Part shown: positions 32,114-61,872 of the stretch, piece by piece
How positions within the stretch are numbered: position 1 is the stretch's first letter
Layout: each line of letters opens with the position of its first letter
NCBI RefSeq assembly: GCF_018977255.1
Contig: NW_024705191.1
Location: forward strand, 1-63,722
Source of the DNA: Callorhinchus milii
Lineage: Eukaryota
Direction: 5' to 3'
DNA length: 63,722 bases
Notes under the pieces: generated by a model
Seen by the model: only the letters and a program-made list of their open reading frames with translations
Databases searched by the model: none
Told to the model about the DNA's origin: nothing
Made by a program: the position numbers and the translations under genes

Positions 32114-32268
32114 CGATTTAAAGCTTTCGTGACTGCAGGGATTCATCTTCTTGGTTCTTTCGGTAAAGTCACGTAGAAGGGAAATAATAAAATAATAAAA
32201 ATAAAACATAATAAAATAATTCTCACGACGTTTCTGCCACAACGCAAGCAGCCATCCTCAGGTGAAGA
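32114..32268 (-). mobile_element. Penelope-like terminal repeat (pLTR) fragment with tail and mutated hammerhead
   Basis: Near-identical to the copies at 37528, 45709 and 61546. The minus strand reads CTGAGGAtggctgc...gtggcaGAAACGTC, with the stem II closing pair disrupted. Confidence 0.8.
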
Positions 32269-34687
32269 CCAATAAGCATTAATACTGTACAACAAACGAA
32301 AGTATGACCATATTAAATAACTCATCGTTTACTGAGCTGAATATAGTTCACATTTTCATACATTTTAAATAAGTCATATAGGAGCTTACAGAAAATAGTG
32401 TTGTTATTGTTTTCCATTTCTTTCTCATAGATTTGCCCAAAGCCTTGATTGGGCACGCTGTGGCCCTGTCTGCCAGTTAGCTCAGCAAACTATCTGCCAC
32501 GTTCCGTATGTCATGTCCATGCGGTGGTTGAGATGTAAACGCATGGAGCGCCGCTGTAAAACCTCTTCGTTCTGCAACAGCCCATGTTCACTGCAGTTTA
32601 TCCTCGGCGTAAACATCACAGCGTAGCAATGGAACCCGTTCTGAATAGTCTCGGTACACACGTGTGATGGTCTGTGCCAGTATGGAGTACCGTCGAATTG
32701 TACGACCCAAGACGTACATTCATATACTAGTACACAAGAAGTAGTCATATCATATTCCGACTGGTATGCACAAACTCAAACTCTTATAGTCACTGAACTT
32801 CTAGAATACAATATTAGATTATTATATGCCCTTTTACTTATACTTAAGTCTAACATGGAGTGATCCAGTTGGTTAATTCCAGTGTTAATGTCCACTGATA
32901 TCCAGAAAACAAATCCTAATCACTGCAAAGTAAGAAAAGTTTTGGAGTGTGGTGAGTTGATGTTCTCAGCACCGAATCTCCATGTACTGTACACACATAG
33001 ATATATCTGATATTTGGTATTTCGCTTAATTTTGCCTTGCCCAGCTCTTGACCAGACAGAAAAACACCCCAACAACAGCCATGCCAAGGCATGCTATTTG
33101 GTGTCTGGAACAGGCAGACCGATTGAGAGACAAGCACTATTGTGAAATGCACTGTCGAAGGTAATTAAGGACAAAGACGTCTCGTCTCTCAATAGTGAGA
33201 CGAGACCGAAAGGCTCGCCTGTTACCTTCCAGCGACGCAGCGCACTTGAGATATTTCGACATAATCGCACGTTCTTTCAATGTCTTAATTATTATCATTC
33301 TCTGGGCAAAGACGTAACTGTTGCCAAAAGGGAGTTCACAACGGTGTTCGTCATTTGATCAGGAATCCGAGTAGTTCATTCTGGATAAAATTACTGGCGA
33401 AACGTCGTACTCAGATTGTAAATTCTGAGGCTTGGCTCTCCAAACACACCGGTGTGCTGTACTAGCGACGAATTGGCCACGTTCTGTTTACGTGACAACC
33501 CTTAGTAGTTGGCTGTGTTGGGTGGTGGCGGGTTTTAACGACACATTAACCAAAAGAAACCTTCTTATGGATATATAAGCGACGTATAACATTTGGATTA
33601 TGCAAGGTGTTTTTGTTTCTTTATGAAGACTTTCACCAACATTATTGGAGGCAGTAAAAATATGTTGTACTCTTGTACAGATTCACACTCACCGTCCGTG
33701 ATATGCCAAGCTGGTGTAGTAATATCATTTGCTATGTTACAGTGTTATTCCACAAAAGAAGTAACTTTAAATTACACACATACACCCTGGACACACTTAC
33801 AAATGAGATCTTCCATCTGAAGGGATTTTCCAGGTGAAAATATTTGAATAAATAATTAAAATAGCCACACACAAACAATGCTGAGATCGAAACAGGGACT
33901 AAACAAATAACTACACGCCTCGTGTATCCATAGTGTAACGAAACTCACTATATAATGTTAATGTGTTTCTGGATATTGTTTTAAATTATATCAACTAAAA
34001 CAAATCTAAAAGACAAATGGAAGGTTATGTTCCTCCTATAATTTTACAATTCAAGGTGGCATCTCGGCGTCAGTAATGGTTTGGGTTCGCCTGTCCAGTG
34101 CATCGTCTGTCGAGATAGTTTGGCTGAGTGTACAGGCTAAGGCTTCGTCAATGTGTTCGGCTTGATTGTATTTAAAGATATAACTTTTATCTTTGTAAAG
34201 TATAAAAATGCAACTTTAGCGAATATATTTCCCATCTTTGCTCTGGTGCGGTGAGAGTTATAGAGGAACCAAGTGGAGGTAAATTTTGCCCTCCGGATAT
34301 CGTACACTGTCACTCAATTTGTCACCGCTTGGCGGGACGTCTTTTCTGGTGCACGCCTTCAAAAAGGGAACAGGTGCACTAAGATGTCAAGAGTCGGTGC
34401 CAGCCTGCAGCAACGTGTAACACAGTGTTAATGCCGTTGGCTTATGTGTTTAGCTAGAAATCTTGCTGCTTTTGCTCCATTTTATTGGCAACAAATGTGT
34501 AACGGAAAATGTTGGCAAAAGAGCAAAGAAATATATATAATGATTTTAAGTGCCAAATAACCCCCACTTTAATGCTGCTCTTCATACCCAGCAGCATCAA
34601 CAGCAGCTTCCAAGACTGACGAGTCACCACCTAGCGCACGTGGACTGGCTGGAGTGTCGCGCGGAGGGGCCAGAGCCCTCCCCACTG

Positions 34688-34833
34688 TTGGTCACGTACA
34701 CACACAGGAGGTCGTGGTGTGTTGGTCACACACACACACACACAGGCGGTCACACACACAGGAGGTCGTGGTGTGTTGGTCACACACACACACACACAGG
34801 AGGTAACACACACACACACACAGGAGGTCGTGG
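34688..34833. repeat. Compound (CA)n minisatellite
   Basis: Repeated ggtca(ca)n-ggaggtcgtggtgtgtt units. Confidence 0.9.
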
Positions 34834-37633
34834 TCTGTCTGCTCGATGAAAATATAGAACTGAGTTTTTTTCTTGTCTAGCACTTCAAAGCAGTTTTTTT
34901 TTATTTTTGGTTTTTATTTTTATTTATTTTGAAATAAATCATAAAATAGGTACTTGCTTTTAAAGCTGCATAGGTACAGAATTTCAACAAACATCTGATT
35001 TTGGAGATAAAACTAACATTTTACAGTTATATTGAGCACAATGAAAAGTTGTTTACATTTTATCCTCTAAGCGAAATAAAGTAGAAAGTGCTATATACAT
35101 ATTGGGAGTGTGAATGTGACCGATATTTGCAGTGTATATCGCTTAAAATAGTCCCAACTTTATTCTTGTTAAAGCATATAGCTTTTTTTTAAGACTTCAT
35201 CCGGACTCTGTGAAAAACCATGAACTCGCCATCCCGGCCATCGCCCATTCGTCAACAAAATCGCAGCACTCGGTGGATTCACTGTTGTGATGAATCCGAG
35301 CAATGTGTAACAACATTGTAGGAGACGTTACATCCCTCGAAAACTGCCGTTGGCAAAGTTGTGTGTCAACGATGCTCTGTCGTTTGGTGATGAGATCGCT
35401 TGAGGGTTGACAATGGAATGAAAACGAGACACGTTAAGGAAGTCTACTATTGTATCTTAGACACAATGAACGGAGTTTCTCTTGCGTTGGCATACCTCTG
35501 TTTTTATACATGTCAAAGCGCACGTTCAACACACTCCAGTGTCAATTACTGCTACTCTTAATAAAAATAATAATTTAAATGTCTTTAATATTTCAATTGT
35601 TATCTTGGCTTTGGCAGATTGGTACGGTTTTGTAATTGTTAGAGACTTGAAAAGGCTGTCATGTTAGTGATGTATGTGAGGCACAACATGGCTTAAAAGG
35701 AGAGCGCAGGTCTTTCTTAATTGACACAGGCCTCTGTGTTGTGGGCCTCCCTGCTTAGGACTCAGGTACATGAATGCCCATCAGCTGGCTCATGGAGTGT
35801 GCTTAGTGAATCTAACCTATTCTAATGCCGACGTCAGTTCAACGCATACGTTCGACTCCCATTACGCATAGAACAACCGACAAGTATCGTAAACATTTTG
35901 TAGAATGGAAACAAATGACAATTAGAATTTTCCTTCTTGTATTTTGAATTTAGAGTGCCAAACATGTTTTTATTACTATTTCAAGACTAAGTCATAATGA
36001 ATTAGATTAATATCGTCTTAGTACCCCCAAGTTCCTTCCATTATATGCACAGGCTGCTACATATTTCAACGTAATAAATGACAAACTCAGGTAAAGGTTT
36101 TCACAATTTGTAATTGATCAGCATAGACGAACTTCACTTCCTCGTGGGGTGTTAAACAAGAGACGCTTAGAAATGAATAGAAGCACAAACTGCATGCCTT
36201 CTGCCACCAGTAGTCCAGTCGATGCTAATATAATGGACCGTGCTGCTTTATAGGTCCTTGCTTATTGTATTTAACAGCCTTTTGTTATTAGGTTTTTCTT
36301 ACAAATCCCTATTTATTTATTCAGCTTTGCCCTGTATCGTACGTCCAATTTATGTGTAGATACTGTAGATATTAGTCCATATGTTGGCCATGCCAACACA
36401 AATAGATTTCCTAGCTGCATTTCAAAATATGAAAATTTTTCAGTTTGGTTAAGTTGTGTCACATGGACTGTTATTTGGAATGTTGCTCGTTTCGGTTTCT
36501 TGCTTTTCATGTAGCTATCCGCCGTCGTGCAACCACAGTCAAAACTGGTGTGTTGAGAGAGCACTGTTTTAATGAAAAATGCTTAAATCAATAGTGTAAA
36601 CTGTTCACAAAACATATGCGATGTGTGTGAATACTGTTCATATTGCTTGTGGGACTTGCTCACAGCTGCTGTGTAAGAGTGTTAAAATGTTCGTGTTATT
36701 TATGCAACTTTGTCTCTGCAGAGTTTTTTAGCTCCATAGTTCCCCGTGATTAAAAGGAATTGGACAAAAGCACAATGCCTACTGTCATCATATTTATTCA
36801 CATCCCGCTATGAGGCATTCCACGGGCGATATGAACAATAATTTTGACTTGTAATATGTAAAAAAAAGACCGTTTTAAAAAGTAACTTTTATTTTAAAAA
36901 AAAACATGAAAAAAGACAATCATATCTCAGTGTTTATTGACTTGGAGCTAAAAAAGATGAAAATAAAAGTTGACAATAACCATCTGTATGTGTAACATAG
37001 GGAAAATAGAGTTTTATTTTTGTTTGTAACAGTGTAATATAAGTTATGTATTTACCATGTTCGTTTTTACTTTTCTAACGTAATGCTTTATTTTAAGTGG
37101 ACCTTCAGTATTACGTCCAGAGTAAAAGTTTGGTGCGGTCATTGTTGATCAAAAATAAAAAATAAATTCGCATTGCAATGCAGATAATAGAGTATTTGCT
37201 ATTGTTTTGCAAACCAATCTAGTGCCACTTAAAATGAAGTATTATCACTCTCATGCTGGGCTGTGCTTGGTACTAGCTGCCTATTGGTAGACACAGTACA
37301 GTTCGTGTGATGTCCTTGGTGCGTACGGTCTGAAAACTGATTCGACATGACAGACACTAATAAATGTTTCTTCAGCCATCACTCCTCGTGTCCTGCACGT
37401 GATGTTTTTTTACGTTTTTTAAGAAGCAGCTCAAACTTCATGGCAAATTGTAAATATTGCCACCATTTGCTGTCATAAGTAATGTCCAAGAGCAGCGGTT
37501 GCCAAACTCTTAACAGATTATATACCTCGATTTAAAGCTTTCGTGACTGCAGGGATTCATCTTCTTTGTTCTTTTGGTAAAGTCACGTAGAAGGGAAGTA
37601 ATACAATAATAAAAATAAAACATAATAAAATAA

Positions 37634-37683
37634 TTCTCACGACGTTTCGGCCACAACGCAAGCAGCCGTCCTCAGGTGAAGAA
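37634..37683 (-). ncRNA. Minimal type I hammerhead ribozyme
   Basis: Reverse complement reads ttcttcac CTGAGGA c ggctgc ttgcgtt gtggcc GAAA cg TC gtgagaa. Confidence 0.75.
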
Positions 37684-38726
37684 TGAAACACCACCAAGCT
37701 TGGAGAGTATATTTAAGCTGGGTTGGAGGGGGGGAGGTGGGAAGAAGAGAGCCTTGACAAAATAATTTGGATATCAAGAGGAATTTAGCATATGCAAAAT
37801 ACGTAGGAGGTAGGCGGGGGGTTTCAAATTAATATTATGCCCGTGCATTATGCAGGATTAGCAGCATCAAAGGGAGGGGAAGGGGGGTAGCATTAACAAA
37901 GGAAAGGAATGTTAATAGTATGTAGCTGCAGTTACTAAACAACCACGTAAAAAACTAAAGTATAAACTACATAAACAACTAAAGTATAAACTACATAGCA
38001 TCATCAATATACTTACTATACTCTACAATAAGCTGAGTTACTAACAGTAAGTAATACATTACAATTCTACGTCGTAAAAATTATATAATATGCTTCCATC
38101 TAAACTTTATTCTCTTACATCACACAAGTCTACACCGTACTATATACTGCCATAGACAAACCCAACATTAAATTATATACTGTATTGCTATGTTATATTA
38201 AAATGTATAAGGTGGTTTATAGCAATACAGTATATAATTTAATGTTGGGTTTGTCTATGGCAGTATATAGTACGGTGTAGACTGTGTGATGTAAGAGAAT
38301 AAAGTTTAGATGGAAGCATATTATATAATTTTTACGACATAGAATTGTAATGTATTACTTACTGTTAGTAACTCAGCTTATTGTAGAGTATAGTAAGTAT
38401 ACTGATGATGCTATGTAGTTTATACTTTAGTTGTTTATGTAGTTTATACTTTAGTTTTTTACGTGGTTGTTTAGTAACTGCAGCTACATACTATTAACAT
38501 TCCTTTCCTTTGTTAATGCTACCCCCTTCCCCCTCCCTTTGATGCTGCTAATCCTGCATAATGCACGGGCATAATATTAATTTGAAACCCCCCCGCCCAC
38601 CTCCTACGCATTTTCCATATGCTAAATTTCTCTTGATATGCAAATTATTTCGTCAAGGCTCTCTTCTTCCCACCTCCCCCCCTCCAACCCAGCTTAAATA
38701 TACGCTCCAAGCTTGGTGGTGTTTCA

Positions 38727-38776
38727 TTCTTCACCTGAGGACGGCTGCTTGCATTGTGGCCGAAACGTCGTGATAA
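38727..38776 (+). ncRNA. Minimal type I hammerhead ribozyme
   Basis: Core CTGAGGA at 38735-38741, stem II ggctgc/gtggcc, GAAACGTC at 38762-38769, stem I tcac/gtga. Confidence 0.72.
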
Positions 38777-39004
38777 TTATTTTATTATGTTTTATTTTTA
38801 TTATTTTATTACTTCTCTTCTACGTGACTTTACCGAAAGAACCAAGAAGATTATATATCCACCAATTTAACACAATACAACCTCAAGTACAACCACAGCA
38901 AAAAATATATCCTCATAATTAACAGACTATATTAAAACAACATCACAACCTTCAGCATTCATTAAATATATTTTTTATCAATGACGGCTATGTACAATTT
39001 ATAA

Positions 39005-39040
39005 TTGATGTAAAGCGCCTTGATAAAGGCGCTATATAAA
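39005..39040 (+). mobile_element. L2/CR1-type LINE or SINE 3' tail remnant
   Basis: gtaaagcgccttgataaaggcgctatataaat is the typical stem-loop 3' end of such elements. Confidence 0.45.
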
Positions 39041-39735
39041 TGTCATTGAGATAAGATATAAAACAGTTAAAAATTAGAAAAAGACAGAACAAACTTACCC
39101 CCTCCAGAGATCCTTTTGGCGTTTTTGGGACGTCTTTAATTGGACTGCTTGACGGGGCGCAGTTGTCGCTTGTCTGGTGAAATCTAGCTTAATTTCAGCC
39201 GGAGGTCTGCTTCTACATTCAGCGTTGTCCTGTGTGTGGTTTGTAATGGAAATCATAGCAGTGAATTTCGATAAGTTGTACAGAATGGAGTAAAAAATGA
39301 CAATGGCCCTGTCTGATTCACCTGAAGTCCAGCTGAAGCTGACCGTCACATGAAACTTCGATTGGACGCTCCCCTTCCTTAAGCGGTTTGGCAAAGTGTT
39401 CTTCAAGTGAAAACGGGTCTCCGATCCAATTTTCTTTCGTGGCATCTTCAGGGCAGGAGTCACTGAAATCTGCAACCAGGCAATGGCAGTGCTCTTTCAT
39501 GTCAGCAATCAGGTCCGGGTGCAGTTTCAGTTAATTTTCAACCTTAGAAATGATTGACAATTATCTCTCTCTACTTGCAGAATAATAAACTGCAGTTTGT
39601 TTTTCAACAAATTATCTTGTTTTGTCACAAACGTTAAAATGATTTGTTTTCAGGCCTTGTAGACTAGCAATCAGTTGATTAAGACAATCAGAAAATTTAT
39701 ACCGGAGGAATCCGATGAGCTACGAAGCTCTTTTT

Positions 39736-41069
39736 AAATCCTTTATTAAATCCTTTATATTAAGTTCGCGTGCTTGCTTGCTTGCTTAGGACCGTGCAAA
39801 TCTTTCGGTCGTTTTTTAACCCACTTCCCGTGATCCAATCGAGCTGACATTTTCCACACAGACTCGTTGTGCCAGACAATTATTGTTCGTGAAAAAAATT
39901 CCCAAAATTTTACACTTTTTAGCCAAAAAAAATTTATTTTACATATATTCAAATAGAACGCATTCATGGCTTTGGCTGAACATCACAGTGCAAGAGCCCA
40001 GAGCGTAACCCCTCCACAGGCCGTGGTGGAGTAGCGCAGTTGGTAGTGCCCTCGCTTCCCATGCCAAAGGTCGCAGGATCGGTCCCCGCGTCCTCCACAG
40101 GCGAATATATTTTCAAATCCTTTATATTAAGTTCGCTTGCTTGCTTAGGACCGTGCAAATCTTTCGCTCGTTTTTTAACCCACTTCCCGTGATCCAATCG
40201 AGCTGACATTTTCCACACAGACTCGTTGTGCGTGACAATTAATGTTCGTGAAAAAAATTCCAAAATGTTACACTTTTTAGGACAAAATATTATATTTAAT
40301 TACCAATTGCTTAATGGTGCAATGCAATCATCTGACCCACAGGTGGCAGCCATCTCAAGCCAGAGGACGAGAGGACTCTAGCCGCCACGCATATAAAGGA
40401 TTTATAGTGAAAAACTTTGTTTTTACGGGTTATACTTGTATTAAGTTCACTTGCTTGCGTGCTTGCATGCTTGCTTGCTTGCTTACGACCGTGCAAATCT
40501 TTCGGTCGTTTTTTAACCCACTTCCCGTGATCCAATCGAGCTGACATTTTGCACACAGACTCGTTGTGCGTGACAATTTATTTTCGTGAAAAAAAATCCA
40601 AAATTTTCCACTTTTTAGGTTTTTTTTTTTATAAATCCTTTATATTAAGTTCACTTGCTTGCGCGCTTACGACCGTGCAAATCTTTCGGTCGTTTTTTAA
40701 CCCACTTCCCGTGATCCAATCGAGCTGACATTTTGCACACAGACTCGTTGTGCGTGACAATTCATTTTCGTGAAAAAAAATCCAAAATTTTCCACTTTTT
40801 AGGAAAAAATTAATTTCACTAACACAATCACATATTTTTCCTAAACACAGAAAATTATTCAAGAAAACAACAAAAATGTACAATATAAACAATCATACAA
40901 AAACTGAAAACCTTATAATCCTTATATACGACTTTCCTTATATTTAATTTAAAATACCAATGTGATAAAAATGAAACTCTTACTTAAGAAAAACAGAAAT
41001 GAATAATAAAATAAAACCGATGCCACGCATATAAAGCATTTATAGTGAAAAACTTTGTTTTTACGGGTT
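39736..41069 (+). mobile_element. Cluster of four tandem or nested Helentron/DINE-1-like non-autonomous elements
   Basis: Each unit has a 13-bp subTIR aaatcctttatat, a (gctt)n microsatellite and the core ccaatcgagctgacatttt. Complete units end with inverted atataaaggattt, the hairpin gtgaaaaac-ttt-gtttttac and gggtt (complete at 40115-40431 and 40633-41069). T-rich junctions, no TSD. Confidence 0.72.
40025..40098 (+). pseudogene. tRNA-like sequence (SINE head or tRNA pseudogene)
   Basis: A-box tagcgcagttgg, D-stem gcgc/gtgc, variable region aggtc, degenerate B-box ggatcggtccc. Anticodon and acceptor stems pair poorly, so it is not a functional tRNA. Confidence 0.55.
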
Positions 41070-42588
41070 AATTTTTAACATGTCCAGTAGGGGCGGGTAA
41101 GAACGTTACAAGAACAAACAGTACAAAACACGATAGTATACAGAACCATGTAAACACGTCCACAAAATAGGCAAGCATTTGCAACCACAGCTCATCGGTG
41201 AAAACGGTCAGAAAAACACAAACTTAATTTCACTTAAGAAAAATGTGCGTCTCAGAATGGAGTTCAAACAGGCGGGCCAACAACACCTTGCCACTTCAAG
41301 TATGCAGAAGACGCTTTTCGTGGTCGGTCCCCATTTCGTTGCACAAAAGAGAAAATAACCGTGAATTTGAGGTGGCCGTGCTTTTACGACATTGACCACA
41401 TTTATGCTCCCTGAATTAAAATTACCTTGAGGTTGGCAGGCATTGTTTGGTTGCTAGAGCCTCACGATGTATACTGCAGTGTGTGAATTTGGTAGTGGGT
41501 GCAACTTCTATTACTTGTGCCAGAACTCCTCCTGACTTGCTAGTCATAACTAGAGCCCCATTAGGTGCCCACACCAATGCATTTTTGCCACTGTAGTCCG
41601 TTCTTGTTCATCAGGTTATCCAGTTTCTTGAATATCTCTTCTGATGTTGTACGACTTGACAAAAGCTTCACAAAATAAAAATAAACTTTCTTTAACTTCC
41701 ATATCTGCTTCAAACTTTACATATGCAAGAATTTCAGCAACAATTTGCCCTCTCATCTGATTGCAATGAAAACTACTTGCTTTTCTCGATGTTTTCAATT
41801 CGCTTTTTCTTTTACTTGACAAGTCATATCTAAAATTGTTCTTGACACTGTTGTTCGACAAAGGAACAACGTCCAACTTGCCTTGCAGCGTCCTCTCCAA
41901 GAACGGATGAAGCAACACATCTCTTGCAGTTAGAAGCACCGGGGTATCACCTTGTGTGTGTGCATTCCCCATCTGAGCAATCCTTAAAATTACTTCAAGC
42001 GACCCAAAGCTCTTGCATTAACACCACTTCGAGTGGTTTTGTTTTCTCACCCGTCTTGGATACTTGCTGAGTTTTTTTAATCAAGAGCTTTATCTTTGGG
42101 AGAGTTATGCTTTGTATGAAGAAATTTCTGCTGGAGAAGTGGAAGGTTTTCATGTGGTGGCTTGCAAGGGATTCATAGCTATTACCATTACGAATCAAAG
42201 CATAGTTAATAAATGCCAACTCTTGTTAAGATTCATTGTATTCTGGATCGAGTTATTGGCATTCGTTCAGTCGCCGGTAAAGCACGTTTAAAACATCCAC
42301 ATTGGTGTCCCATAAAAAAAATAGAGGGGATTACTTGGGAGAGAAAATTGGACCGAATTACTCACTCTCCCATATTAAAAATGAGCAACCGTCATAAGAA
42401 CGAGTTCCGTTTCCTCACCACTCCAAGTAATTCTGAATGCCAAACAACTGGCATCATATATTCTGGTAACTTCGCGCATACCCAACTGTTGTAGCAGCAG
42501 GACATGTTTCAGAACTGCCAGCGGGCCCTCCTCACTTAATCCAGTGGCATGAGCTGGCACGACTTTCCGGAAAATCAAAGGGTTTTTT

Positions 42589-42994
42589 AAATCCTTTATA
42601 TTAAGTTCGCTTGCTTGCTTGCTTGCTTACGACCGTGCAAATCTTTCGGTCGTTTTTTATTTAAATCCTTTATATTAAGTTCGCTTGCTTGCTTGCTTGC
42701 GCACTTACGATCGTGCAAATCTTTTGGTCGTTTTTTACCCACTTCCCGTGATCCAATCGAGCTGACATTTTCCACACAGACTCGTTGTGCGTGACAATAT
42801 AATTTTCGTGAAAAAAATTTTCCAAAATTTTACACTTTTTAGGAACAAAAAATTATATGTAATTACCAATTGCTTAATGGTGCCAAGCAATCATCTGACC
42901 CATAGGTGGCAGCCATCTCAAGCCAGAGGACGAGAGGACTCTAGCCGCCACTCATATAAAGGATTTATAGTGAAAAACTTTGTTTTTACGGGTT
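42589..42994 (+). mobile_element. Helentron/DINE-1-like element (partial 5' duplicate plus full copy 42663-42994)
   Basis: Same subTIRs, microsatellite and 3' hairpin as 40115-40431. Confidence 0.75.
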
Positions 42995-43380
42995 AATTTT
43001 TTGTTTCCGTGTGGTTTCTCTTCAGAGACGTTGCAGTCAGCCACCTCTCCATTAGTATATTACTTGTATTGAACACTACAGGAGCTCAGGCGAAATACAA
43101 ATCAAATCACCCTCACGCGGTACCTGTGTGTTTCGCTGTGTTTGTCTGTCTCCATGTACAGCACTCGTCTGTCTCTCTGTATGCGGTCAGTCTCCGTGAC
43201 CAGTATCCGTGTCTGCTGTGTTTTGTCTTGCTGTCTGCCTCCCTGTTTGTCTCTGATTCGTGATTAACCAAAAAGCGGTCAATCTTTACATGAAAAATCA
43301 ACAAATCTTCAACTTCTGTGTAAAACACGTGCTCAGCAACGTGCCAGGAGCGCTGATAATCTGTCTGCGTGCCACTAGTG

Positions 43381-45708: not shown

Positions 45709-45857
45709 TTCTTCACCTGAGGACGGCTGATTGCGTTGTGGCCGAAACGTCGTGAGAATTATATTTAATTATTTACTATTTTATTATTTCCCTTCTACGT
45801 GACTTTACCGAAAGAACCAAGAATATGAATCCCTGCAGTCACGAAAGCTTTAAATCG
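45709..45857 (+). mobile_element. Penelope-like pLTR fragment with hammerhead and tail
   Basis: ttcttcacCTGAGGAcggctgattgcgttgtggccGAAACGTCgtgagaa...tccctgcagtcacgaaagctttaaatcg. Confidence 0.82.
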
Positions 45858-45892
45858 GCTTTATATCAGTCGAAAAAGTGTCTGTCTCTCTC

Positions 45893-46078
45893 TCTCCCCG
45901 TGGTCGCGTGGACTTTTCTCCGAGCCCTCCAGTTTTTCTCTCCACATTTAGTAAAATGCCTTTAGAGTATTTGGCTGCTATAAATTTCACATGATCAGCC
46001 ACACTTCGTTGAGCTATCATTTGTGGCGAGGTCGTTTCTGAAAAAGAGCTATATAGCTCAGTAGGCCTTACCTAGTAA
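45893..46078 (+). mobile_element. 5'-truncated V-SINE
   Basis: V-domain plus tail ctcagtaggccttacctagtaa; homologous to the copies at 30908 and 57255. Confidence 0.75.
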
Positions 46079-46273
46079 CATTTCTTTAAAATTATTTAGT
46101 TTGTACAGGTATCGGAATGGCTTTTCCCAATAATTTAATAATGTACTGTACTAGGGTGCGTTTCGTACAGTCTTTCCAACTCTACTCCTTACCTAAAAAA
46201 ATACACCTATATCACTTTTCACAACACAAACATAATAATAAAGAACATACACATTCAAACGATTGAACGATAA

Positions 46274-46424
46274 ATTTAGATTTTTCTAATTTTCTTGCTG
46301 TGGATTTCACACCTGATAATTGCTTGTGTTGCAGTCGAAACGTCTTGAGAATTTTTATTGTTTTATATTTATATTATTTTATTATTTCCCTTCTACGTGA
46401 CTTTACCGAAAGAACCAAGAATAT
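46274..46424 (+). mobile_element. Degenerate Penelope-like pLTR copy without tail
   Basis: 3' part matches the family; hammerhead is degenerate. Flanked by a 13-bp direct repeat gattgaacgataa (46261-46273 and 46425-46437). Confidence 0.75.
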
Positions 46425-46689
46425 GATTGAACGATAATTCATTTTAAACAAAAATAATGAACCCTTTCAGCCAATTCATCAAAAGATCTGCTTCATGTTG
46501 GAATGCCTGGAGAGGCGATGTGGAGGCGTTGCTGCTGTTGCGCTGCAGAGACACCGTGACGCCGTCGCGGATGGATGGCGACGCAGCCCTCCCGTGTGGC
46601 TTCTCGTTCAATCTCCTTCTTGTCGTACGGCGGTGGATGTAGATGCAGAGCAACAGCTACAATTTCACATGCAGGTGGTCAAGCCAAGA

Positions 46690-47135
46690 TGATCGTTTCA
46701 GGAGCAGCGGAGTGTATCGCTGTTGTGTCTCATTTCGTATTTGTGGATCGGGGCATTGCGTCCTTATACGTTTCACGGTCTCTGTTCTGGATGACCACAG
46801 TCGCACATTACTGGAGAGTTTAAAATGTTCCATTCGTGCATCATCAGATATCCACCTCTACCGCCATGGTTTGCGCAGTGGATGTGGGTTAGGGTGGACC
46901 ATGCACTTCGTGGAAGATCAAACCCCAGGCATCTTCTGCGTTCGGTCTTTCACAAGGTGTTCGTTTGGGAGTTCTCTTGAACTCCTTTCAGTTCTCCAAG
47001 ATTCATCGGGGTTGAACTCGCGTTGTTGAAGGTTAAGCGCATGGGTCTATACGGGCAACAAATGCAGCTCTCACCCCGGTGCCTCAGCAATGGATTGCCA
47101 CGAGGTTCAGTACTGGCGCCAACGCTCTTCAGTGT
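46690..47135 (-). mobile_element. RTE-X-like LINE 3' fragment with an inverted RT piece
   Basis: Minus strand: LVKD.TQKMPG.DLPRSAWSTL...CDCGHPEQ. Plus strand 47035-47135: NGLPRGSVLAPTLF (RT motif GLPQGSVLAP). Confidence 0.7.
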
Positions 47136-47285
47136 CTCGTTGTTTGATGATCTCGTGGCGAGCGCCGCAGTGAAGTTTCGTTCACGCAGAAATTCGATTT
47201 CGTGAATCGAAAAGTGTCCGTAAGCTGTCAATTGCGTGAACGCGACATTTCGTAAAGCGAGCGTTTGCAAATCCAGGGATACCTC

Positions 47286-47834: not shown

Positions 47835-48530
47835 CACCTCACCAATGTCGCGTGACGTCATAACCCTCTCCTCACCACGCCCACGTCTCTTGACGTCATC
47901 ACTCCCTGTCATACACCTCACCCGTGTCGCGTGACGTCATAACCCTCTCCTCACCACGCCCACGTCTCTTGACGCCATCACTCCCTGTCATACACCTCAC
48001 CAATGTCGCGTGACGTCATAACCCTCTCCTCACCACGCCCACGTCTCTTGACGTCATCACTCCCTGTCATACACCTCACCCGTGTCGCGTGACGTCATAA
48101 CCCTCTCCTCACCACGCCCACGTCTCTTGACGTCATCACTCCCTGTCATACACCTCACCCGTGTCGCGTGACGTCATAACCCTCTCCTCACCACGCCCAC
48201 GTCTCTTGACGTCATCACTCCCTGTCATACACCTCACCCGTGTCGCGTGCCGTCACCTCCTCTCCTCAGCACCCCTGCGTGTGGTGACGTCACTCAATCT
48301 CACCAAAGCATCCGCAATCTCGCGTGACGTCCTCACGCCTCTCTGCACCAACTCACCAGTGTCGCTTGAAGTCATCACTCCCGTCTCCTCACCACCTTCT
48401 ATGTCCCGTGACGTCATACCCCCTTCCTCACAACATCACATCAATGTTTCGTGACGTCAGTACCCCTTTCTCCAAAAGCCCAGTGTCTCTGTGAGGTCAT
48501 CAGCCCCCCCCTCCACCTCACCAGTGTGGC
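47835..48530. repeat. 79-bp minisatellite (5 full copies plus degenerate tail), rich in TGACGTCA
   Basis: Unit starts at 47846, 47925, 48004, 48083, 48162 and 48241. Confidence 0.92.
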
Positions 48531-48610
48531 GTTATAACCCTACATGACTTTACCGAAAGAACCAAAGTGTGGCGTTATAACCCTACATGACTTTACCGAA
48601 AGAACCAAAG
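48523..48610. repeat. 43-bp tandem duplication containing a pLTR 3' fragment
   Basis: agtgtggcgttataaccctacatgactttaccgaaagaaccaa twice. Confidence 0.85.
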
Positions 48611-48643
48611 AGTAAATAAACATCTTAAAGTGAAATAAATATA

Positions 48644-49247: not shown

Positions 49248-51871
49248 CACGGGTGTCCAACTTTTTGCAAAGAGGGCCAAATTTGATCAAGTGAAGATGC
49301 CCGGGGCAAATAGTTCCTTCTGAAATTTTTTTAACCACAAAAGTTACGTGAAAATACACACTGTTATAAAAAAAATTCATTGTCACAATTACCTTTATTT
49401 TTCAAATGACAATGTAACCAAATATAAGCTACTCAGGCAGACGTGAACAACTCTAAAAACACAATTCTGCCTTTCATTCAGTCAGATAACATTGAACAAA
49501 CTGTATAGAATACCTTAAATTTCCATGAGTTAAATATCTTTGCCTCATGAACATTTTAAACAGGAGTTATAAGTAATGCAAAGTGGTCTGTTATCATTAA
49601 ACTTTAAAACAAGTGAATTTTGCCCTTGTCTTTTACAAGATCTTTCAGAAAGCAATAGTTTGTGTCACATCTACAGGTACATAACATCAACAGTTATAAC
49701 CAAATCTTATTCAAGAGTTTAATAAAACAAGTGCCATAAGTCCAAGTGCATTAGTGTGCTTTAGGCTTTTCACTGTTAATAGTGACAGATGTTACCGTTC
49801 AAAACACTCAATTTCAGATTGATCAAGGAACAGATAACTTGCTGACACTAATGAGAAGGGTGATACTGAGATCTAGATTTCAGTAAAGAGACCAGGTCTG
49901 GCTTGAGGGCAGTGGTTGAGATGCGTAAAATGTCACGCAAGTGGGAGTCACTCATCCTTGACCTCAATCGGTTCTTGTTTAAGTTCATGACTGAGAATGT
50001 TTGCTCACACAAATATGTGGAGCCGAATAAGCTCAGCATTTTCTTAGCGAATGACCGCATTTCTGGAAACCTGCTTTTGTCCAGCTGCCGGTAAAAGTCA
50101 ACAAGAGAACACTGCTGGTGTTTTCCGCGGCACTCATCGTCACACTGCAGCTCAATGAGCTCCAGCTGCAGCTGTGGAGGAGCATCATCAGGGTCCACGG
50201 AGAAGGGAGAAGAGAAAAGCAACATGTCCTTTTCAATAACTGCAAAGTCCCGAAAGCGTTTGTTAAATTCCACAGAAAGAGATGCGATAGCTGTTGCATA
50301 ACTCTTCATTTGCGCACCGATGTTGTCCTGTGGGAAACTGTCAATGACCTCTTTCAAAGCTGGGAAGTGCGCAGTGCAGGGCTCTGTTTGGGACAAGTGT
50401 CTTTGGAAAAGTTGCAGTTTGGTTCCAAAGGCCTTGATGTGAGCGTATAGCTGGCTCACCACTGCATCTTTTCCTTGAAGATTAACATTCAGCGCATTCA
50501 GATGCTTCGTTATGTCAGCCAGATTTGCCAGCCATACAGGATCGGACAGTTCTTCCATTGGTTGTCCCTTCTCACCCAAAAAATGTCCAATTTCCTCTTT
50601 GAGAGAGAAAAATCGCTGCAGTGCGGACCCCCGACTTAGCCACCTCACATCGTTGTGATATATTACGTCACCGTATTCAGCCTGGATGTCACGCAAGAAC
50701 TGCTGAAACTGTCGGTGGTATAGAGCTTTAGAGCGAATAGAATTGATTGCCTTTGCCACTGGTTTCATAACATCGTCAAATTTGAGATGTTTGGCGCAGA
50801 GAGCCTGCTGGTGAATGATACAGTGAAGTTTAATAGCGTTGCCTGCTTCTTCGCTGACTTTATTGCAGATCAGTGTGGACAATCCACTTCGCTCACCAGC
50901 CATGGCAGGTGCACCATCGGTAATGATCCCAGAAACTTTACTCCATGGTAGTTTCATATCATCAACAGCTTCACAAACAGAAACGAATAAATCTGTTCCT
51001 CTGGTTTGCCCTTTAAGGCTTTTGAGGTCAAGCAGCTCCTCTGTCACGTTCATGTTGTCATCAACTCCTCTTAAAAAATAAGTAGTTGTGCAGTGTCAGA
51101 TGCATCGGTGCTTTCATCGCAGGCTAATGAGAAATAATCAAAAGCCACTCCCCTGTCCCCAGTTGTCTCTGAATATCTGACGATATGTCCTCAACTCTCC
51201 GTGCCACAGTGTTGCGTGCCAGGCAAACATTCATAAATTCTTGCTTCTTCTCGGGGCAAATGTTCTCCACCATTTTCATGACACAGTCTTTGATAAACGC
51301 ACCTTCAGTAAAAGGTTTGCCATGTTTAGCTATTAACATGGCCACTTCGTAGCTGGCTTTGGTGATGTTTTCCTTTGACTCACAGGCCCGCGTGAAGAAT
51401 CGCTGTTGCGATGCCAGAGCAGCGGAGTTGCTTCACTTTTTCAGCGCGGTCACTCCCTGTTAGCTTGTCGTATGTTGTAGCATGTTTAGTCTCGTAGTGT
51501 CTCTTTACGTTGAAATCCTTAAACAAGGCAACCGTCTCTTTACAAATTAGACAAACACAATTGCCTCGATTTTCAGTGAAGAAGTATTGTAATTCCCACC
51601 GCTCCTGAAAGCGGCGGCCCTCACTGTCAACTTTTCTCTTTTTTTTTGCAGTCGCCATGGCAGAAAATTCGAGAAGGGTTCGCGGCACAGATGCAGAGCC
51701 AGATAGCATTAGAATGGTGCTGCCACCGTGTGCTGAAAGGAGGAATTACATCTTTAAACGTTTATGATTTATTTATTCTGACAAAGCTAGCGAGCCATAA
51801 ATAACAAATTATAATACCGAAGCTGCGGGCCGTATGAAATCTGACCGCGGGCCGTACTTTGGACATGCCTG
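49248..51871 (-). mobile_element. Full-length hAT (Buster/Charlie) DNA transposon
   Basis: TIRs cacgggtgtccaa / ttggacatgcctg. Perfect 8-bp TSD cattacat (49240-49247 and 51872-51879). 2624 bp long. Confidence 0.93.
49848..51658 (-). pseudogene. Frameshifted hAT transposase (GTF2IRD2/EPM2AIP1-like, ~600 aa)
   Basis: MATAKKKRKVDSEGRRFQERW..CLIC..KRHYETKH; KPFTEG; TDGAPAM; HCIIHQ; VRWLSRG; FGSTYLCEQTFS. Split over three listed ORFs. Confidence 0.92.
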
Positions 51872-54435: not shown

Positions 54436-56359
54436 CATACGTATATGCATTCCTAAATTAATGATATTCATCTATTAAGCTAACGAGTTCATGTTTAAGT
54501 ATTCTACGTATGCTGTCTTTCCTTACGATTCAGGCGTTATTCTTGATTAGTTTTCTTAGATTTTTATGGGGGGGGAGGGCGAAACATCAAACCACAGTCT
54601 TGAGAAGTGCCTCAGTGCAAAACTAACATTCTTTACAGGAGATTGCATTTGTAAGCATTGAATATTTCTTAGCGAGGGTTTATAGAAATGTAATGATCAC
54701 CAATGATATCACATTTTCTACAAGTTGCCCCCTTAAACCACAGGCGCAGTGTCGCTTCACTCTCGTACCAGTTATTTCGCAATACTCTACATCCTTTCCA
54801 TGAAAATTCGGTTGGAAAAAAATAAATTCCTCTACATTTTATGCTGATGTGCAACAGAAATCTTTGCCTAAATGTTACAATATTCCACAAAGTGTGATAG
54901 GCCATGACAAAAATGTGAAGTTTATAAAAATGCATAAATGTACGTTAATTTTTAAAGTGGAATTCAGTTGGGCAGAATAATGAAATAGTTAATTTCAGCT
55001 GCTGAAATGTATCTAAAACTCCCACTTTAAAGCTCACTCATTTCCTCTTATGGGAATGCCTTTAATTTGTTAGCAGCTGTTAGAAAGATTTCAAGTGTGA
55101 AGCTGCGAGACTTCAATGTTAGGCTTAAATAAATTCTCCAAATTGAATATAAAGTCTCCACTGGCTGAGGCCTAATTAAAATAATTAACATCCAACATAT
55201 CGCTGGGACTAATTTGCCTCCCCGAACACATTACACCTGACGGGGTTATTTAGCTCCGTATTCCAAAGGATTGAACTTAATCCATACTGACACATCATTT
55301 TCACAGCAAACCCGATGAGACTAAAAATTAAAACAGAATAAAAGATGTGTTTATAAGCTTTAAATTCTTGCATTTATCCCCCGCTGGCATGGGCCCTACT
55401 TACTGGCGTACAACTGAACAATTGTCAGCATGAAGCCCATTTGTCTAACTTTTACAAAGCATTTAAAATTAATTAATTATATACATTTCTTATTAGTGCC
55501 ATAATAACAGCGAGCATGCCATTTTGCTTAGACTCCTGTCACGTGTGGAGATTTAAGTTGCAGTTAATGACCAACATCTGTTTCTTCACATGTTTAAACA
55601 ATTATTATCTTTAGCAGAATTAAAAATAAATTTGCCTTGATAAATTGATATCTTTTTCGAGAGCATTACATTTCAGTACTGGAAATGTGCACCTTGATCA
55701 TGACAGTATTTAGCGATGTATATTGTTATGGTTAGAGTAATTTCTTGCATCACAATGTAATTTGGCCACCGATGATAATAATAAGAACAAAAACCTCCAT
55801 CGGCGGCCACACCACTAATTCATAGCAGAATTTAAGATCAGAGTGCTTTCAAATAACGTTGGAAAGCCTCACCGAGTCTTGTGCCTCGTTTTCAGAAGGG
55901 TCCTGCCAGGCTTTCACAGTAGCGGGGAACATGACCCGTGGTGTATAATGCCCACTGAGACATTTGCGGATATTTTTTTTTTAAGTTTTGGCAAATTTGG
56001 ACCATGACGTTGGTTAGACCCGTTGGCAAACCCCGCGGGACCCCTAATGTACAGTTACAGCGGTAGAGGAGGTGGTGGGCGTTAATAACAATTATTAGTG
56101 GTGCAGGAGTCGAACTGTGAACCTCGACAACAGGGAAATGCGCTGCCTCTGGGCTACGTGCGTGTGGCGCCTGTGTTACGTTCTGATCACATTCTATTTG
56201 CTTCTGCCAGCATGTACGTTTGCAATTACCGTACAAAATGTGTGGAGTATTTCAACCTAAAACTAGGACCAATCGGCAATGATTAAAATGTGAAACACGA
56301 AGCAACGTGTGACAATATTTGGTATTGTTTTGAATTCGACAATATATAAATACCAAGTA

Positions 56360-56722
56360 CAGTCTGTTCTCCTATAACACCGCGTGTTGTTTTCATAACG
56401 CGAATTGGATATAACGTGATGAATGTATTAGGGAACACTTTTTATAACGCGGATGCGAATTGGATATAACGTGACTGAGTGAACAGAGCTACGTCGCGCG
56501 AGTAGAGATAAGCGGTTGTATGGCTTCCTTGGTTGACTACGGATGCTGCTGGATGCTTCTAGGTGCTACCCACGCGCCTCAGTCTTTGTTCGGCCTGCGT
56601 ATGCATATCACGTGTTATCGCGGACTGTGCTTTACCCTATATTATAATATATTATAAGGCAATGTTTCCATAACGCGGTGTTCTTCAGGAACGTAACTAC
56701 CGTGTTATAGGAGAACAGACTG
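56360..56722. mobile_element. Tc1/mariner (pogo/Tigger-type) MITE
   Basis: Perfect 21-bp TIR cagtctgttctcctataacac with TA on both sides. Confidence 0.92.
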
Positions 56723-57254
56723 TACTATTATAATGAACATGACAACCACGGGCTGTATTTTATAACTGCATTTCAAGACGTTCTCCAAAATGTTATCAAC
56801 ACAAGCAGCAGTAGCAATATCGTGATAATGGTGACAATAATCTTCATCAGTAACAGCAGAACTAACATGAGCAACAGTAAAATTATCACTTTCGGCATCA
56901 TTATTTTAGCAACTTCATCATCACCATCACGAACATCGTGGATCACGTTACATAGAATGGATCAATTTGGTTTTGGCAGGACATTTGGGGGCCACAGAAA
57001 TGACGTCCTGCTTCAACACTAAATTACGTGTCACAGAAAAAGTAATTTGCGCCGTTGTGGAGAAAATGAGTGACCAAATAAATAAGCAGACAATACGCCT
57101 GGTTCACAAATCTGTCCATACAAATATATCTGTAGTATTGTTGCTTATTTTGTTACTTATATTCTCCACGACACTCGCCGTGACTGTTACTCTGCTACCG
57201 TCGGCCCCACAACGCATCGCTGCTCGATTTCCCCCGAGGTCGGCCTCCACACCC

Positions 57255-57490
57255 GGGTGCCGCGGTGACGAGATGTTAACTGCTTCGCTTAGTATGCAGG
57301 AGGTCGTGGGTTCGATCCCGACCCTGATGCCTGTATAGTTTGTGTATTCTCCCCGTGGTTGCGTCGATTTTTCTCTGGGTACAGCGGGTTTTTTTCCACT
57401 TCGTTGAGCTATCATTTGTGACAGGCAGGTCGCTTCTAAAAAATAGCTAGATAGCAGCTCAGTGGGCCTTACCTGGTAAAATAAAAAAAA
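57255..57490 (+). mobile_element. V-SINE, internally deleted, with 3' tail
   Basis: B-box ggttcgatccc, V-domain, tail ccttacctggtaaaataaaaaaaa. Confidence 0.8.
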
Positions 57491-57929
57491 GTTAATAGTT
57501 TTAATAGTTTCATCCCTGTGCACTTCTGTCTCTTCTTCTCCTGGGCATCACTCTCGTCCCGTGCGGTGTGTGTTCTTCTGAGGCGCCCCGTGCGGATAGC
57601 TGAGTTTTGCTTGGATACTGATGAAACATATATTCCAGTTGGTGGGCTGTCATTGCTCGCTGTTGCATGCATTTATTAACATAGTGAACACATAATAAAC
57701 TAAACATCAGTGGTCAATGCTTTCCAGTTACCAGTCTACAAAATGTTGCTTTAGTCAATAGTTTCTGCGTAAAATTAGACGGGCGTTTTCTTTACAGCTT
57801 TCACGAATCATCAAACATTTGCATCATACCCAAAGAGTTCTGGAAATGCCATACTTACGGTTTAACTATCCTTCCATGAAGATCAACAACAACAGCCGCC
57901 ATTCGCTGCTAAGTGGCGGTGACGTCATC

Positions 57930-58540
57930 ACAGCGCTTGTGCCAGACTAGGTGCACTTTGAGGTCATGTGAAGTGTCAAACGCTGGCTGACAGGACACGG
58001 GACAAAACCACGTGCCATGAGCTGACTGGCAGACGCACCACCTGTGCTCCCTACCGTTCCAATATTTTAGCCACCCGGTGTTCCGCTCATTGTTATGATC
58101 GTCGCTCCTCTGCGCTCCATTGTTGTTGGAGGGCGACTGTAGTAGCATTCTTCACGAGCATCCTCCATAGAGGCAGATCTTGACACCGCAAGTACCAGTC
58201 TTCGGCAGGTTCACTCAGCTCCACATCCTCCTGTACTGCATCAGTCCATCTCTTCTCGAGCCCGTGCCACGCCCGTTTAGTCCCCTCTATGCGGCTAAAC
58301 AGAAGCTGCTTGGGCATTCAGTTGCTGGGCATGCGGACTGCATGACCAAGTCAATGCAGCCTTATTTGCCGGAGGAGCTCACTGATGGGAATGTGTCCAA
58401 ATCTTTCAAAGATTTGTGAGCTCCTCACACAATCCAGCTTAGGCAAACCCAGGATGGTTCGTAGGTAGGCAAGCCTGAATGTTTCAAACCAGCGCAGATG
58501 TTCCATTGGAACGGTCCACGTTCTGCAAGCAAAGTGAAGG
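57930..58540 (-). mobile_element. RTE-clade LINE 3' fragment
   Basis: WTV..HLR.FETFRLAYLRTILG...LRQIRLH*LGHAVRM..MPKQLLFS..KRWTDAV..W...CQD..LWR. Confidence 0.8.
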
Positions 58541-58744
58541 GAGGACATGACCAGGTAGTTTCCACACATCGTTACGCAGCTGATGAAAAGATAATGCCGC
58601 TTTACTGATTCGGAGTGAGACCTCCGCTGCAAAAATCGAAGCAGGTCATATGCAGATTACCTAGGTACGGGACCAGCTAGTTTTGCCTCAGGCTTGTTCC
58701 ATCTGGGCCGGCCCTCTAGCTGCTACCGTAGGCGCACACCAGAT

Positions 58745-58931
58745 TCAACATCCCTGGTGAGTCGGTGCAGTCAGCAGCTGACAACACACCAGGCTCAACA
58801 TCCCTGGTGAGTCGCTACAGTCAGCAGCTGACAACACACCAGGCTCAACATCCCTGGTGAGTCGCTACAGTCAGCAGCTGCCAACGCACCAGGCTCAACA
58901 TCCCTGGTGAGTCGGCACAGTCAGCAGCTGC
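58745..58931. repeat. 50-bp minisatellite (~3.7 copies)
   Basis: tcaacatccctggtgagtcg...caccaggc units start at 58745, 58795, 58845 and 58895. Confidence 0.92.
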
Positions 58932-59500
58932 CCACGCCGAACCCCGGACGGCGTTCACTAACCCGGAAAACTCAGCTTGTCTGAGCCTGGGCATGTGGAA
59001 CCCCTGGTGGAGGATATTCCACCAAAAGGGTCTTTGGACCTTCCACTTGCACCCAGGACCATCTCCAGTCGTCTTGACTACATCTTGCCACTGGGTACAG
59101 ATGGGGCTGGTCGAGAGAGTGAGGTTGATGCTGTGCAAATCACCCTCACTTAAATCCAAGTTCTCTGCACAAGTCATGGCACCTTTTACCAGCGCCATTA
59201 TCCAAGTACTGTGGCGATGGGTGAGCTACGAAGCAGCAGGTACGGATATGCTGGAAGCTGTAGCCGCAAACCTGCACGCAGGCGGCTTAGGATATTGGTC
59301 GTTCCCTCACTGGACCGAAGCAGCAGTGAGGTCCGGCAGCACCCTGAGTTACTGAGCAGCCCTATTCAGGATCACACTGCTCACCTCCCGAGTGAGGAAA
59401 GGGCTAGAACAGGTACCCTAAACATTGCCTGCTTCAAAACATCCTGACCAGCCTACTGCAGCTGGCAGGATTCCATACTTGCGGTCGAAAAACAAATAAA

Positions 59501-60409
59501 ATGAAAAAGACCAAAGTGACGCCACTCACTGTTAGCACCTGGAATATGCGTATTTTGATGGACACATCTGGATCAAAAAGACCTGAGAGACGCACTGCCC
59601 TCGTGAGCAGAGAGCTAGCCAGATATAATGTGGGTGTTGCCACCCTTAGTGAGACCCGACTGGCCAATACTGGACAGGTGACTGAAGTGGGTCCAGGTTA
59701 CACATTCTTCCAGAGCGGAAGAGGCCAGGAGGAGAGATGTGAAGCTGGTGTTGGTTTTGCAGTAAAAAACCACCTGGTCAACCAACTGGCAAGCAAACCC
59801 AAGGGTATAAACGACCGTTTAATGACCTTAAAGCTCCACCTATTGGGTAAAAAGGAGGCCACCATCATCAGTGCCTATGCCCCTACCATGACCAACTCTG
59901 ACGAAATCCAAACCAAGTTTTATAATGACCTGGAAGTCATTATTCCTGCCACAGCCAGCTCTGACAAACTCCTAATACTTAGTGACTTCAATGCCAGAGT
60001 TGGAAGTGACCATCAATCATGGAATGGAGTCATAGGTGCACATGGCATTGGAAAATGTAACAGCAACAGCCTTCTGCTGCTGAAAACATGCTCTGAATTT
60101 GACCTGCTCATCACCAACATGATATTTCAACTACCAAAGCGCAAGAAAACTTCATGGATGCATCTTCGTTCACACCAATGGCACTTGATTGACTACGTCA
60201 TCATGAGGAGGAGCAACCGGCATGATGTCAGGGTGACCAAGGAAATGTGTGGTGCTGAATGTTGGACTGACCATCGTCTCATCATCTCCAAACTTAACAT
60301 TCGGATTAAGCCTCCCAGATGCCCACAAGGAAAAAGACGTGTCAAGCGTCTTAACATCACTCGCCTACAACAGGAACACACCAGACTGGCCTTTGTTGAG
60401 GCTCTAGAC
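59501..60409 (+). mobile_element. RTE LINE ORF N-terminus (AP endonuclease), truncated by hAT insertion
   Basis: TWNMR, RPERRTALV, LSETR, GVGFAV, SAYAPT, DFNARVG, TSWMH, IDYVI, TDH. The listed ORF runs on into the hAT terminus to 60481. Confidence 0.9.
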
Positions 60410-61545
60410 CAGGGGTCCTCAAACTTTTTAAACAGGGGGCCAGTTCACTGTCCCTCAGACCGTTGGAGGGCCGGACTATAGTTAAAATAAACTATGAACA
60501 AATTGCTATGCACACTGCATATATCTTATTTTGAAGTGAAGAAACAAAACGGGAACAAATACAATATTTAAAATGAAGAACAAGTAAAGTTAAATCAACA
60601 AACTTGCCAGTATTTCAATGGGAACTATGGGCCTGCTTTTGTCTAATGAGATGGTCAATGTCCGGTTCCATATTTGTCACTGCTAGTCGTAACAAGTGAT
60701 GCAAGTGTGCATCCATTAGTCTAGATCTGGTTAGAGATTTCAAATGTTTCATTCTGGAAAAAGTCTGTTCACAGACATAAGTGCTGCCAAAGATGGTTGC
60801 CATTTTGAGTGCATGGTTCCTGAGATGAGGATATGTCTCAGAGGGGAGAGATGCATAGAAATTATGAAGGCTGCTTGACTTGAATGCGTCTTTCAGAGAG
60901 TCACAATTCTGCAGTTCAGCCAGTTCTATTTGGTAAATTGTATCCACATTTTCAATGTCAATAGAAAATTGGTTACGGAAAAGCTGTATGTCCTGTTCAT
61001 GGAGATGAAGCTCTTTAAATCTAAATTGGAACTCCTTTGGCAATTTTTCCAGTGAATCCACACATGTTTTGTTTGGGAATGCAACCAATGGTTTTTTCTG
61101 ATAACAGATTTTGAGTTGTGGGGAGATGGCAGAAGTTTTCCTCCTTCACTTGTTTGATGAGGAGGCCTAATTTTACTTCAAATGCTTTGACATGTGATTG
61201 CATATCACAAATTAGCTTCCCCTTTCCTTGAAGTTGCACATTGAAACTGTTGAGTAGCTCTGTTACATCTGTCAGAAAGGCAAGGTGCCATTTCCATTTT
61301 TGCATCCTTGAGCTCTGGTACTTCTTTGTTTTTGAAAGCAGAAAAGCTGTAATCTGTGGAAGTAAGTCATAGAAACGTTTAAAAACTCTCCCTCGACTCA
61401 GCCAACGGACTTCTGTGTGGTACAGAACATCTTCATAGTCAACATTTAGCTCAGACAGAAATTCCTGAAATTGTCTGTGGTTTAGTACATGAGCTCTAAT
61501 GAAGTTAACACAAGATACCACAATTTTCATAACAAAGTTCCATTT

Positions 61546-61813
61546 CGATTTAAAGCTTTCGTGACTGCAGGGATTCATCTTCTTGGTTCTTTCGGTAAAG
61601 TCACGTAGAAGGGAAGTAATAAAATAATAAAAATAAAACATAATAAAACAATTCTCACGACGTTTCGGCCACAACGCAAGCAGCCGTCCTCACCTGAGGA
61701 CGGCTGCTTGCGTTGTGGCCGAAACGTCGTGAGAATTGTTTTATTATGTTTTATTTTTATTATTTTATTACTTCCCTTCTACGTGACTTTACCGAAAGAA
61801 CCAAGAAGATGAA
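61546..61813. mobile_element. Penelope-like palindromic pLTR insertion
   Basis: 119-bp arms 61574-61692 and 61695-61813 around a central cc. 28-nt one-sided tail. Imperfect ~15-bp TSD aacaaagttccattt / aacagagttccactt. Confidence 0.9.
61689..61733 (+). ncRNA. Minimal type I hammerhead ribozyme
   Basis: Stem I ctcac/gtgag, CTGAGGA at 61694-61700, stem II ggctgc/gtggcc, GAAA-cg-TC at 61721-61728. Confidence 0.75.
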
Positions 61814-61872
61814 CAGAGTTCCACTTCAGTGATTTACTACACAGCGCTTGTTTGTGGATGAGGCAGTGTATG

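Follow-up and report, generated by a model that had tools for sequence, protein, structure and literature searches.

A 63,722-nucleotide (nt) stretch of DNA (contig NW_024705191.1; hereafter the window) carries a family of short, AT-rich repeats with a minimal hammerhead ribozyme motif. Most likely, these repeats are dead-end retrocopies, lacking a promoter, that derive from the terminal repeat (pLTR) of a Penelope-like element (PLE) of lampreys with a minimal hammerhead, probably of the Poseidon type, the coding master of which would lie elsewhere. The host is read as a lamprey because a SoxD coding exon of the window encodes 96 amino acids of which 94 are identical to a Petromyzon marinus SOX-5-like protein. 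The initial annotation of the window, made from the sequence alone, had already proposed a Penelope-type minimal hammerhead, and this is supported both by a sister motif from the sea lamprey, which has been linked to a Poseidon element, and by a full Penelope insertion signature.

Seven copies, five insertions

A BLAST search with one copy recovered seven long copies, 84-91% identical to the copy near 45.7 kb, and two 26-nt fragments (48540 and 48583); the long copies lie where the initial annotation had placed them. Its figure of about seven copies in 30 kb stands for copies and not for events: 37528-38851 and 61546-61813 are each a single palindromic insertion, leaving five insertion events, and the density is to be reckoned on about 33.7 kb because the first 30 kb or so of the window is random-like (see below). 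The copies are as follows, with starts counted from a predicted initiator (+1).

32114..32268, minus strand: solo copy with tail, starting at predicted +3; hammerhead relic (C3 at 32261) with the G10.1-C11.1 pair broken
37528..38191, minus strand: left arm of a 1.3-kb head-to-head palindrome, with a 508-nt upstream region, an intact minimal hammerhead (C3 at 37675) and a 31-nt tail (37528-37558)
38192..38218, no strand: non-palindromic spacer of 27 nt between the arms
38219..38851, plus strand: right arm of the palindrome, no tail; intact minimal hammerhead (C3 at 38735, predicted cut after 38769)
45709..45857, plus strand: solo copy with tail, starting at predicted +2; intact minimal hammerhead with a 5-bp stem II (C3 at 45717, predicted cut after 45751)
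46274..46426, plus strand: degenerate copy that belongs to a sister subfamily, with part of the core deleted and with a loop and stem II nearer the published lamprey motif
48540..48608, plus strand: two fragments of 26 nt each from the distal repeat end, within a 43-bp tandem duplication
61546..61813, no strand: 268-bp fold-back insertion, arms identical at 119 of 119 positions, axis at 61693/61694

In the fold-back, the plus arm has an intact hammerhead and the minus arm a broken core and a 28-nt tail; a tail is present on four of the seven copies. Each copy departs from the majority at 1-3 of 117 bases, which makes the recent mobility proposed for the family only moderately recent and is no proof of present activity. 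The copy near 46.3 kb is 82-93% identical to the main family over its distal 74 nt; the 39 nt that precede its relic core (46274-46312) match nothing else in the window, and reading them as an inverted tail is unsupported (p=0.19). In a word search of sequencing runs, the 664-nt arm or part of it was found in 20 of 24 rows, with at least half of its words in 16 of them under four organism labels, matches that could equally come from a shared family or an orthologous locus. Among the rows, the four of RNA had shares of 0.06-0.12 and gave no evidence of expression.

A minimal hammerhead core

The pattern CTGANGA..GAAAC occurs eight times in the window against 0.97 expected; five matches belong to the family (32230 and 37644 on the minus strand; 38735, 45717 and 61694 on the plus strand) and the other three are unrelated. 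The motif has the anatomy first described for it, namely stem I (UCAC/GUGA), CUGAGGA, one extra C and a 6-bp stem II (with two G-U pairs), followed by a 7-nt loop and GAAA-CG-UC; the unpaired base between positions 9 and 10.1, the G10.1-C11.1 pair and the palindromic 15.2-16.2 without loop 3 are all present. A full minimal-hammerhead descriptor is passed by four of the seven copies (37.6 kb, minus; 38.7, 45.7 and 61.7 kb, plus) and had no match in 60 Markov nulls, and its placement on the last of these bears out the predicted position of the cut, after 61728. The remaining three are broken: the copy near 32.2 kb is without the G10.1-C11.1 pair, the minus arm near 61.6 kb reads GUGAGGA, with G at position 3, and the copy near 46.3 kb has a core deletion. 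An Rfam scan returned no hammerhead family at E<=1 and matched the palindromes only to microRNA (miRNA) hairpin models, below the gathering score.

It is hardly credible that the hammerhead look is due to chance, within a hairpin repeat or one resembling a miniature inverted-repeat transposable element. The blank Rfam scan, the sub-threshold miRNA matches and the lack of stem II covariation within the main subfamily would suit such a reading, but four real descriptor matches against none in the nulls, compensatory changes relative to the published lamprey motif, and the existence of solo, non-palindromic copies all argue otherwise. Covariation had been suggested as a test, and its outcome is divided: nothing within the main subfamily, and two two-sided stem II changes against the single published lamprey motif, compared by eye.

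In folding calculations, pair probabilities reach about 1.0 for stem II and 0.73-0.83 for stem I; for two free copies, an extended duplex (-37.3 kcal/mol) is favoured over the active dimer (-21.8 or -23.3 kcal/mol). The preferential conservation of the core that was anticipated is not seen: by hand count of four copies against the majority, the ribozyme has 3 changes in 156 nt and the flank 7 in 312 nt. The ribozyme decays at the rate of the flank, with no sign of post-insertion selection at this low power.

Introns can occur in Penelope elements. In these repeats a word resembling a splice donor, GTGAGA, starts at the base after the predicted cut (61729), and the tail contains a CTGCAG about 85 nt downstream (45752-45839); the donor word of the published lamprey motif is weaker.

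A sister of the published lamprey motif

The minimal hammerhead of PLEs was defined in 2014 in a paper that also noted the mostly solo occurrence of the copies and described a Schistosoma example with no cleavage as a monomer and weak cleavage as a dimer (PMC4209133). The same paper gives a P. marinus motif labelled "Poseidon, partial" (Fig. S3/Table S1), and our Poseidon label derives from this sister motif, no open reading frame (ORF) having been linked to the repeats themselves. Compared by eye, the two agree in stem I, in the bulged C, in CGUC and at six of the seven loop positions. They differ at one loop base and at three stem II pairs, of which two have both bases changed (G-C to A-U and C-G to U-A) and the third only one; N7 is G in the repeat. 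The repeats further share with the minimal hammerheads of that paper the type I topology, a 4-5 bp helix I, a 6-bp helix II, U-rich 5' and AU-rich 3' flanks, the unpaired base between 9 and 10.1, the G10.1-C11.1 pair, the palindromic 15.2-16.2 without loop 3, the mostly solo occurrence, opposite-strand pairs 100-700 bp apart and the lamprey host. The copy near 46.3 kb has the loop of the published lamprey motif and, in the stem, its AUUGC part; together with the distal 74 nt that it shares with the main family, this ties the two subfamilies together. By sequence, the repeat represents a sister subfamily of the published motif. The exact subfamily may already be present in the supplement of PMC4209133, in that of bioRxiv 10.64898/2026.07.22.740005 or in Repbase; lamprey terms were not found in the supplement of PMC11167929.

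Insertions with a Penelope signature

Target-site duplications (TSDs) of 10-13 bp flank four of the five insertions, each at p<=0.004 against random flank pairs:

32095-32106 and 32275-32286: TSD-like, 11 of 12, around the copy near 32.2 kb
37515-37524 and 38848-38857: TSD, 10 of 10, spanning both palindrome arms
46261-46273 and 46425-46437: TSD, 13 of 13, around the copy near 46.3 kb
61531-61542 and 61812-61823: TSD-like, 11 of 12, around the fold-back near 61.5 kb

Two of the five insertions are head-to-head palindromes, each inside a single TSD pair, and in each the tail (28 or 31 nt) is on one arm only. The arms of 37528-38851 align with 615 matches, 17 mismatches and two gaps. The insertion at 61546-61813 splits the reading frame of a hAT transposase: the parts on its two sides correspond to residues 88-109 and 105-259 in another hAT copy, with a 5-codon overlap; the hAT remnant is older than the insertion. 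The TSDs and the interrupted hAT gene bear out the mobility that was first proposed.

All of this matches what has been published on insertions of endonuclease-bearing (EN+) PLEs. For these, an "inverted 5'-truncated copy" and a "30-40 bp tail" (PMC8557442), and a 31-bp tail, 8-10 bp TSDs and junction palindromes (PMC3846280) have been described, and the repeats show the same 5' truncation, inverted partner, one-arm tail of about 31 bp and short TSDs, as well as a palindromic junction and a TATA/initiator-like motif in the pLTR (see also PMC2377424). The tail begins at a conserved ATG, much as in Penelope, where a 34-bp repeat is located at the start of the ORF; in contrast to those elements, no partial tandem with an ORF occurs in this window. 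The Poseidon element of Anolis carolinensis offers a parallel for the tail, which there is the interval between two internal start sites of reverse transcription, with uncut RNA as the main template and a ribozyme that needed the protein of the element (PMC11167929). The repeats have the same two 3' ends with the tail between them, copies of uncut RNA and AT-rich targets; the anole ORF starts inside the ribozyme, whereas here about 80 nt separate the cut site from the conserved ATG downstream, which is not a proven ORF start.

Small circular RNAs are a second conceivable vehicle: the repeats could be monomer offspring of a tandem non-LTR (long terminal repeat) retrozyme, an explanation we regard as very improbable. 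Like non-LTR retrozymes, they are short, non-coding and AT-rich, with a type I hammerhead and a relation to pLTRs (PMC7229834; bioRxiv 10.64898/2026.07.22.740005), and the latter source reports retrozymes as pLTR derivatives with dispersed monomers. However, retrozymes are by definition head-to-tail tandem repeats, whereas no tandem array of the unit occurs in the window and its copies are dispersed or inverted, no two of them in tandem; the ends are fixed at two sites rather than permuted or at the cleavage site; and the motif is of the minimal type, which PMC7229834 sets apart from the canonical hammerheads of retrozymes.

The two palindromes show two further features. In the larger one, the inner parts of the arms (37816-38191 and 38219-38593) are identical at 371 of 376 positions, and the outer parts at 125 of 133 and 119 of 125, which may reflect homogenisation near the centre of the hairpin. 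In the smaller one (61546-61813), both arms depart from the majority by one and the same change, although a mismatch is present in the flanking duplication; these arms may have been corrected against each other.

A predicted start site and a possible run-off origin of the short copies

A predicted core promoter lies in the right arm of the large palindrome and is mirrored in the left arm:

38695..38730, plus strand: TATA-like 8-mer (7 of 8 to consensus) 31 nt before a perfect initiator; motif match only

The initiator A (38726) stands 9 nt before the ribozyme core. Relative to it, the copy near 45.7 kb starts at +2 and that near 32.2 kb at +3, while the axis of the fold-back near 61.5 kb falls at +8/+9 in a near-palindrome; a TATA and initiator pair sits 1-3 nt before an arbitrary position at 0.12-0.16% of positions. 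The statement that most short copies begin a few bases before the ribozyme fails for the copies near 37.5 and 38.7 kb, which extend 508 nt upstream of it. From +1 to the two 3' ends the distances are 126 and 157 nt. Based on the three insertions that start at or just after the predicted initiator, we tentatively suggest that the copies of about 125 and 155 nt are run-off by-products of internal priming at the tail sites of the upstream pLTR, with copying of an uncut transcript up to its capped 5' end, similar to inserted strong-stop DNA, and not random truncations, although we hold this with clearly less confidence than the Penelope assignment itself. The promoter-bearing palindromes (37528-38851) could feed such run-off copies in trans. 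A run-off origin was not found stated in the literature searched, within the limited collection of papers.

Following the Penelope literature, the repeats would arise when a protein with reverse transcriptase (RT) and GIY-YIG domains nicks AT-rich DNA and reverse transcription starts at one of two sites within the RNA, about 30 nt apart, giving an end with or without the tail. Copying would proceed through the uncut ribozyme and then stop or fold back, the latter producing head-to-head pairs. Less firmly, three of the four main-subfamily insertions would end where the complementary DNA (cDNA) ran off the RNA, whose 5' end would be set by the initiator of the pLTR itself, 9 nt ahead of the core. 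Cleavage would take place in the master transcript, and only with the ribozyme in a dimer or assisted by the protein; the solo copies are likely inert.

Weighing the lack of a Penelope frame

Most Penelope copies are 5'-truncated, so that the absence of an ORF from 34 kb says little. As first reported, no Penelope RT/GIY-YIG frame was found in the window, in a scan of 147 of the 156 stop-to-stop frames of at least 62 amino acids beyond 29.9 kb (the other nine, which overlap AT-rich linkers, were left out); this is the first of several points that weigh against our assignment. The scan matched hAT sequences, a long interspersed element (LINE) endonuclease and one weak LINE-type RT piece. The reading frame through the tail had no relative among proteins, the search giving one candidate and none at E<=10, and pattern scans of viral contigs and metagenome contigs were empty, such that the anticipated link to an adjacent PLE ORF was found neither among the window frames nor in these searches. 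The 508-nt upstream region, present only in the two palindrome arms, may belong to the element or be captured host DNA. No TSD was found around the copy near 45.7 kb in the flank-pair test. Regarding the start site, the promoter test was post hoc and involved three boundaries; in the lamprey example published in PMC4209133, the 15 nt ahead of the core are without an initiator A; the Penelope of D. virilis is described with a TATA-less internal promoter (PMC2377424); and folding predicts no stable cDNA hairpin at the axis of the fold-back.

Several candidates were tried and rejected: a stable cDNA hairpin as the cause of the fold-back (DNA folding gave -0.4 kcal/mol); two further protein matches to the tail frame, which are spurious and come from unrelated repeat proteins; and a weak RVT_1 match at 46981-47202 (E 0.03) as the master, since it lies outside the TSDs and has a motif that we take to be LINE-type.

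The initial annotation saw in these repeats a non-autonomous ribozyme retroelement. Mobile they are, but nothing shows them to be self-standing: they are dispersed, the short copies are without the predicted promoter, the uncut ribozyme is kept and the core is no better conserved than its flank. A self-propagating family, in which ORF-less, promoter-bearing pLTR units such as 37528-38851 were transcribed and copied in trans by a Penelope protein and most short copies came from non-coding masters, is in our view unlikely, if less so than a retrozyme origin. Both palindrome arms do hold the predicted TATA and initiator together with an intact ribozyme, their 508 nt upstream are without a coding signal, five events in 34 kb is dense, and pLTR sequences sufficed for mobilisation in trans in the account of PMC3846280. 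Nonetheless, the short copies are without the promoter and could not copy themselves again, private changes in each of the arms are what decay would give, the core shows no sign of purifying selection, and an ordinary autonomous element would give the same products.

Genomic setting

From 344 to about 29,950, following a run of 30 N bases, the window contains some 29.6 kb with a random-letter make-up (all tested dinucleotide ratios about 1.0, hardly any repeats), unlike the remainder, which is CpG- and TpA-poor; this stretch should not count as biology. The 33.7 kb or so beyond it is rich in repeats, including hAT and LINE remnants. Two features bear on the insertions described above:

31262..31552, plus strand: C-terminal coding exon of a SoxD (SOX-5-like) gene, assigned by the P. 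marinus match given above
60618..62808, minus strand: hAT transposase remnant interrupted by the 61546-61813 insertion

The copy at 32114-32268 sits about 560 nt beyond the SoxD stop codon and, being antisense to the gene, is unable to cut its mRNA. The two broken hAT transposases (49851-51745 and 60618-62808, minus strand) carry Spin-doc zinc fingers and are about 38% identical to each other. A LINE-type endonuclease ORF of 357 amino acids occupies 59408-60478 (plus), and the decayed RT fragment at 46981-47202 (plus) is separate. Copies of a transfer RNA (tRNA)-like short interspersed element with a common core lie at 30907-31053, 45893-45937 and 57255-57392, the core resembling V-SINEs. There are also a 79-bp minisatellite at 47835-48255, a family of 150-180 bp repeats at 39742-43001 around a tRNA-like piece at 40025-40097, and a 50-bp tandem array at 58735-58930.

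Significance

The motif, its link to Penelope and a sea-lamprey example were all published in 2014 (PMC4209133); what the present repeats add is modest, namely insertion footprints in a clean set. If the run-off reading is true, it would account for the thousands of solo minimal hammerheads, still uncut, that accompany each full element in the genomes of animals. The boundaries of the insertions would then map the start site of the element, and the copies would be an in vivo counterpart to the internal priming observed in vitro with the anole element.

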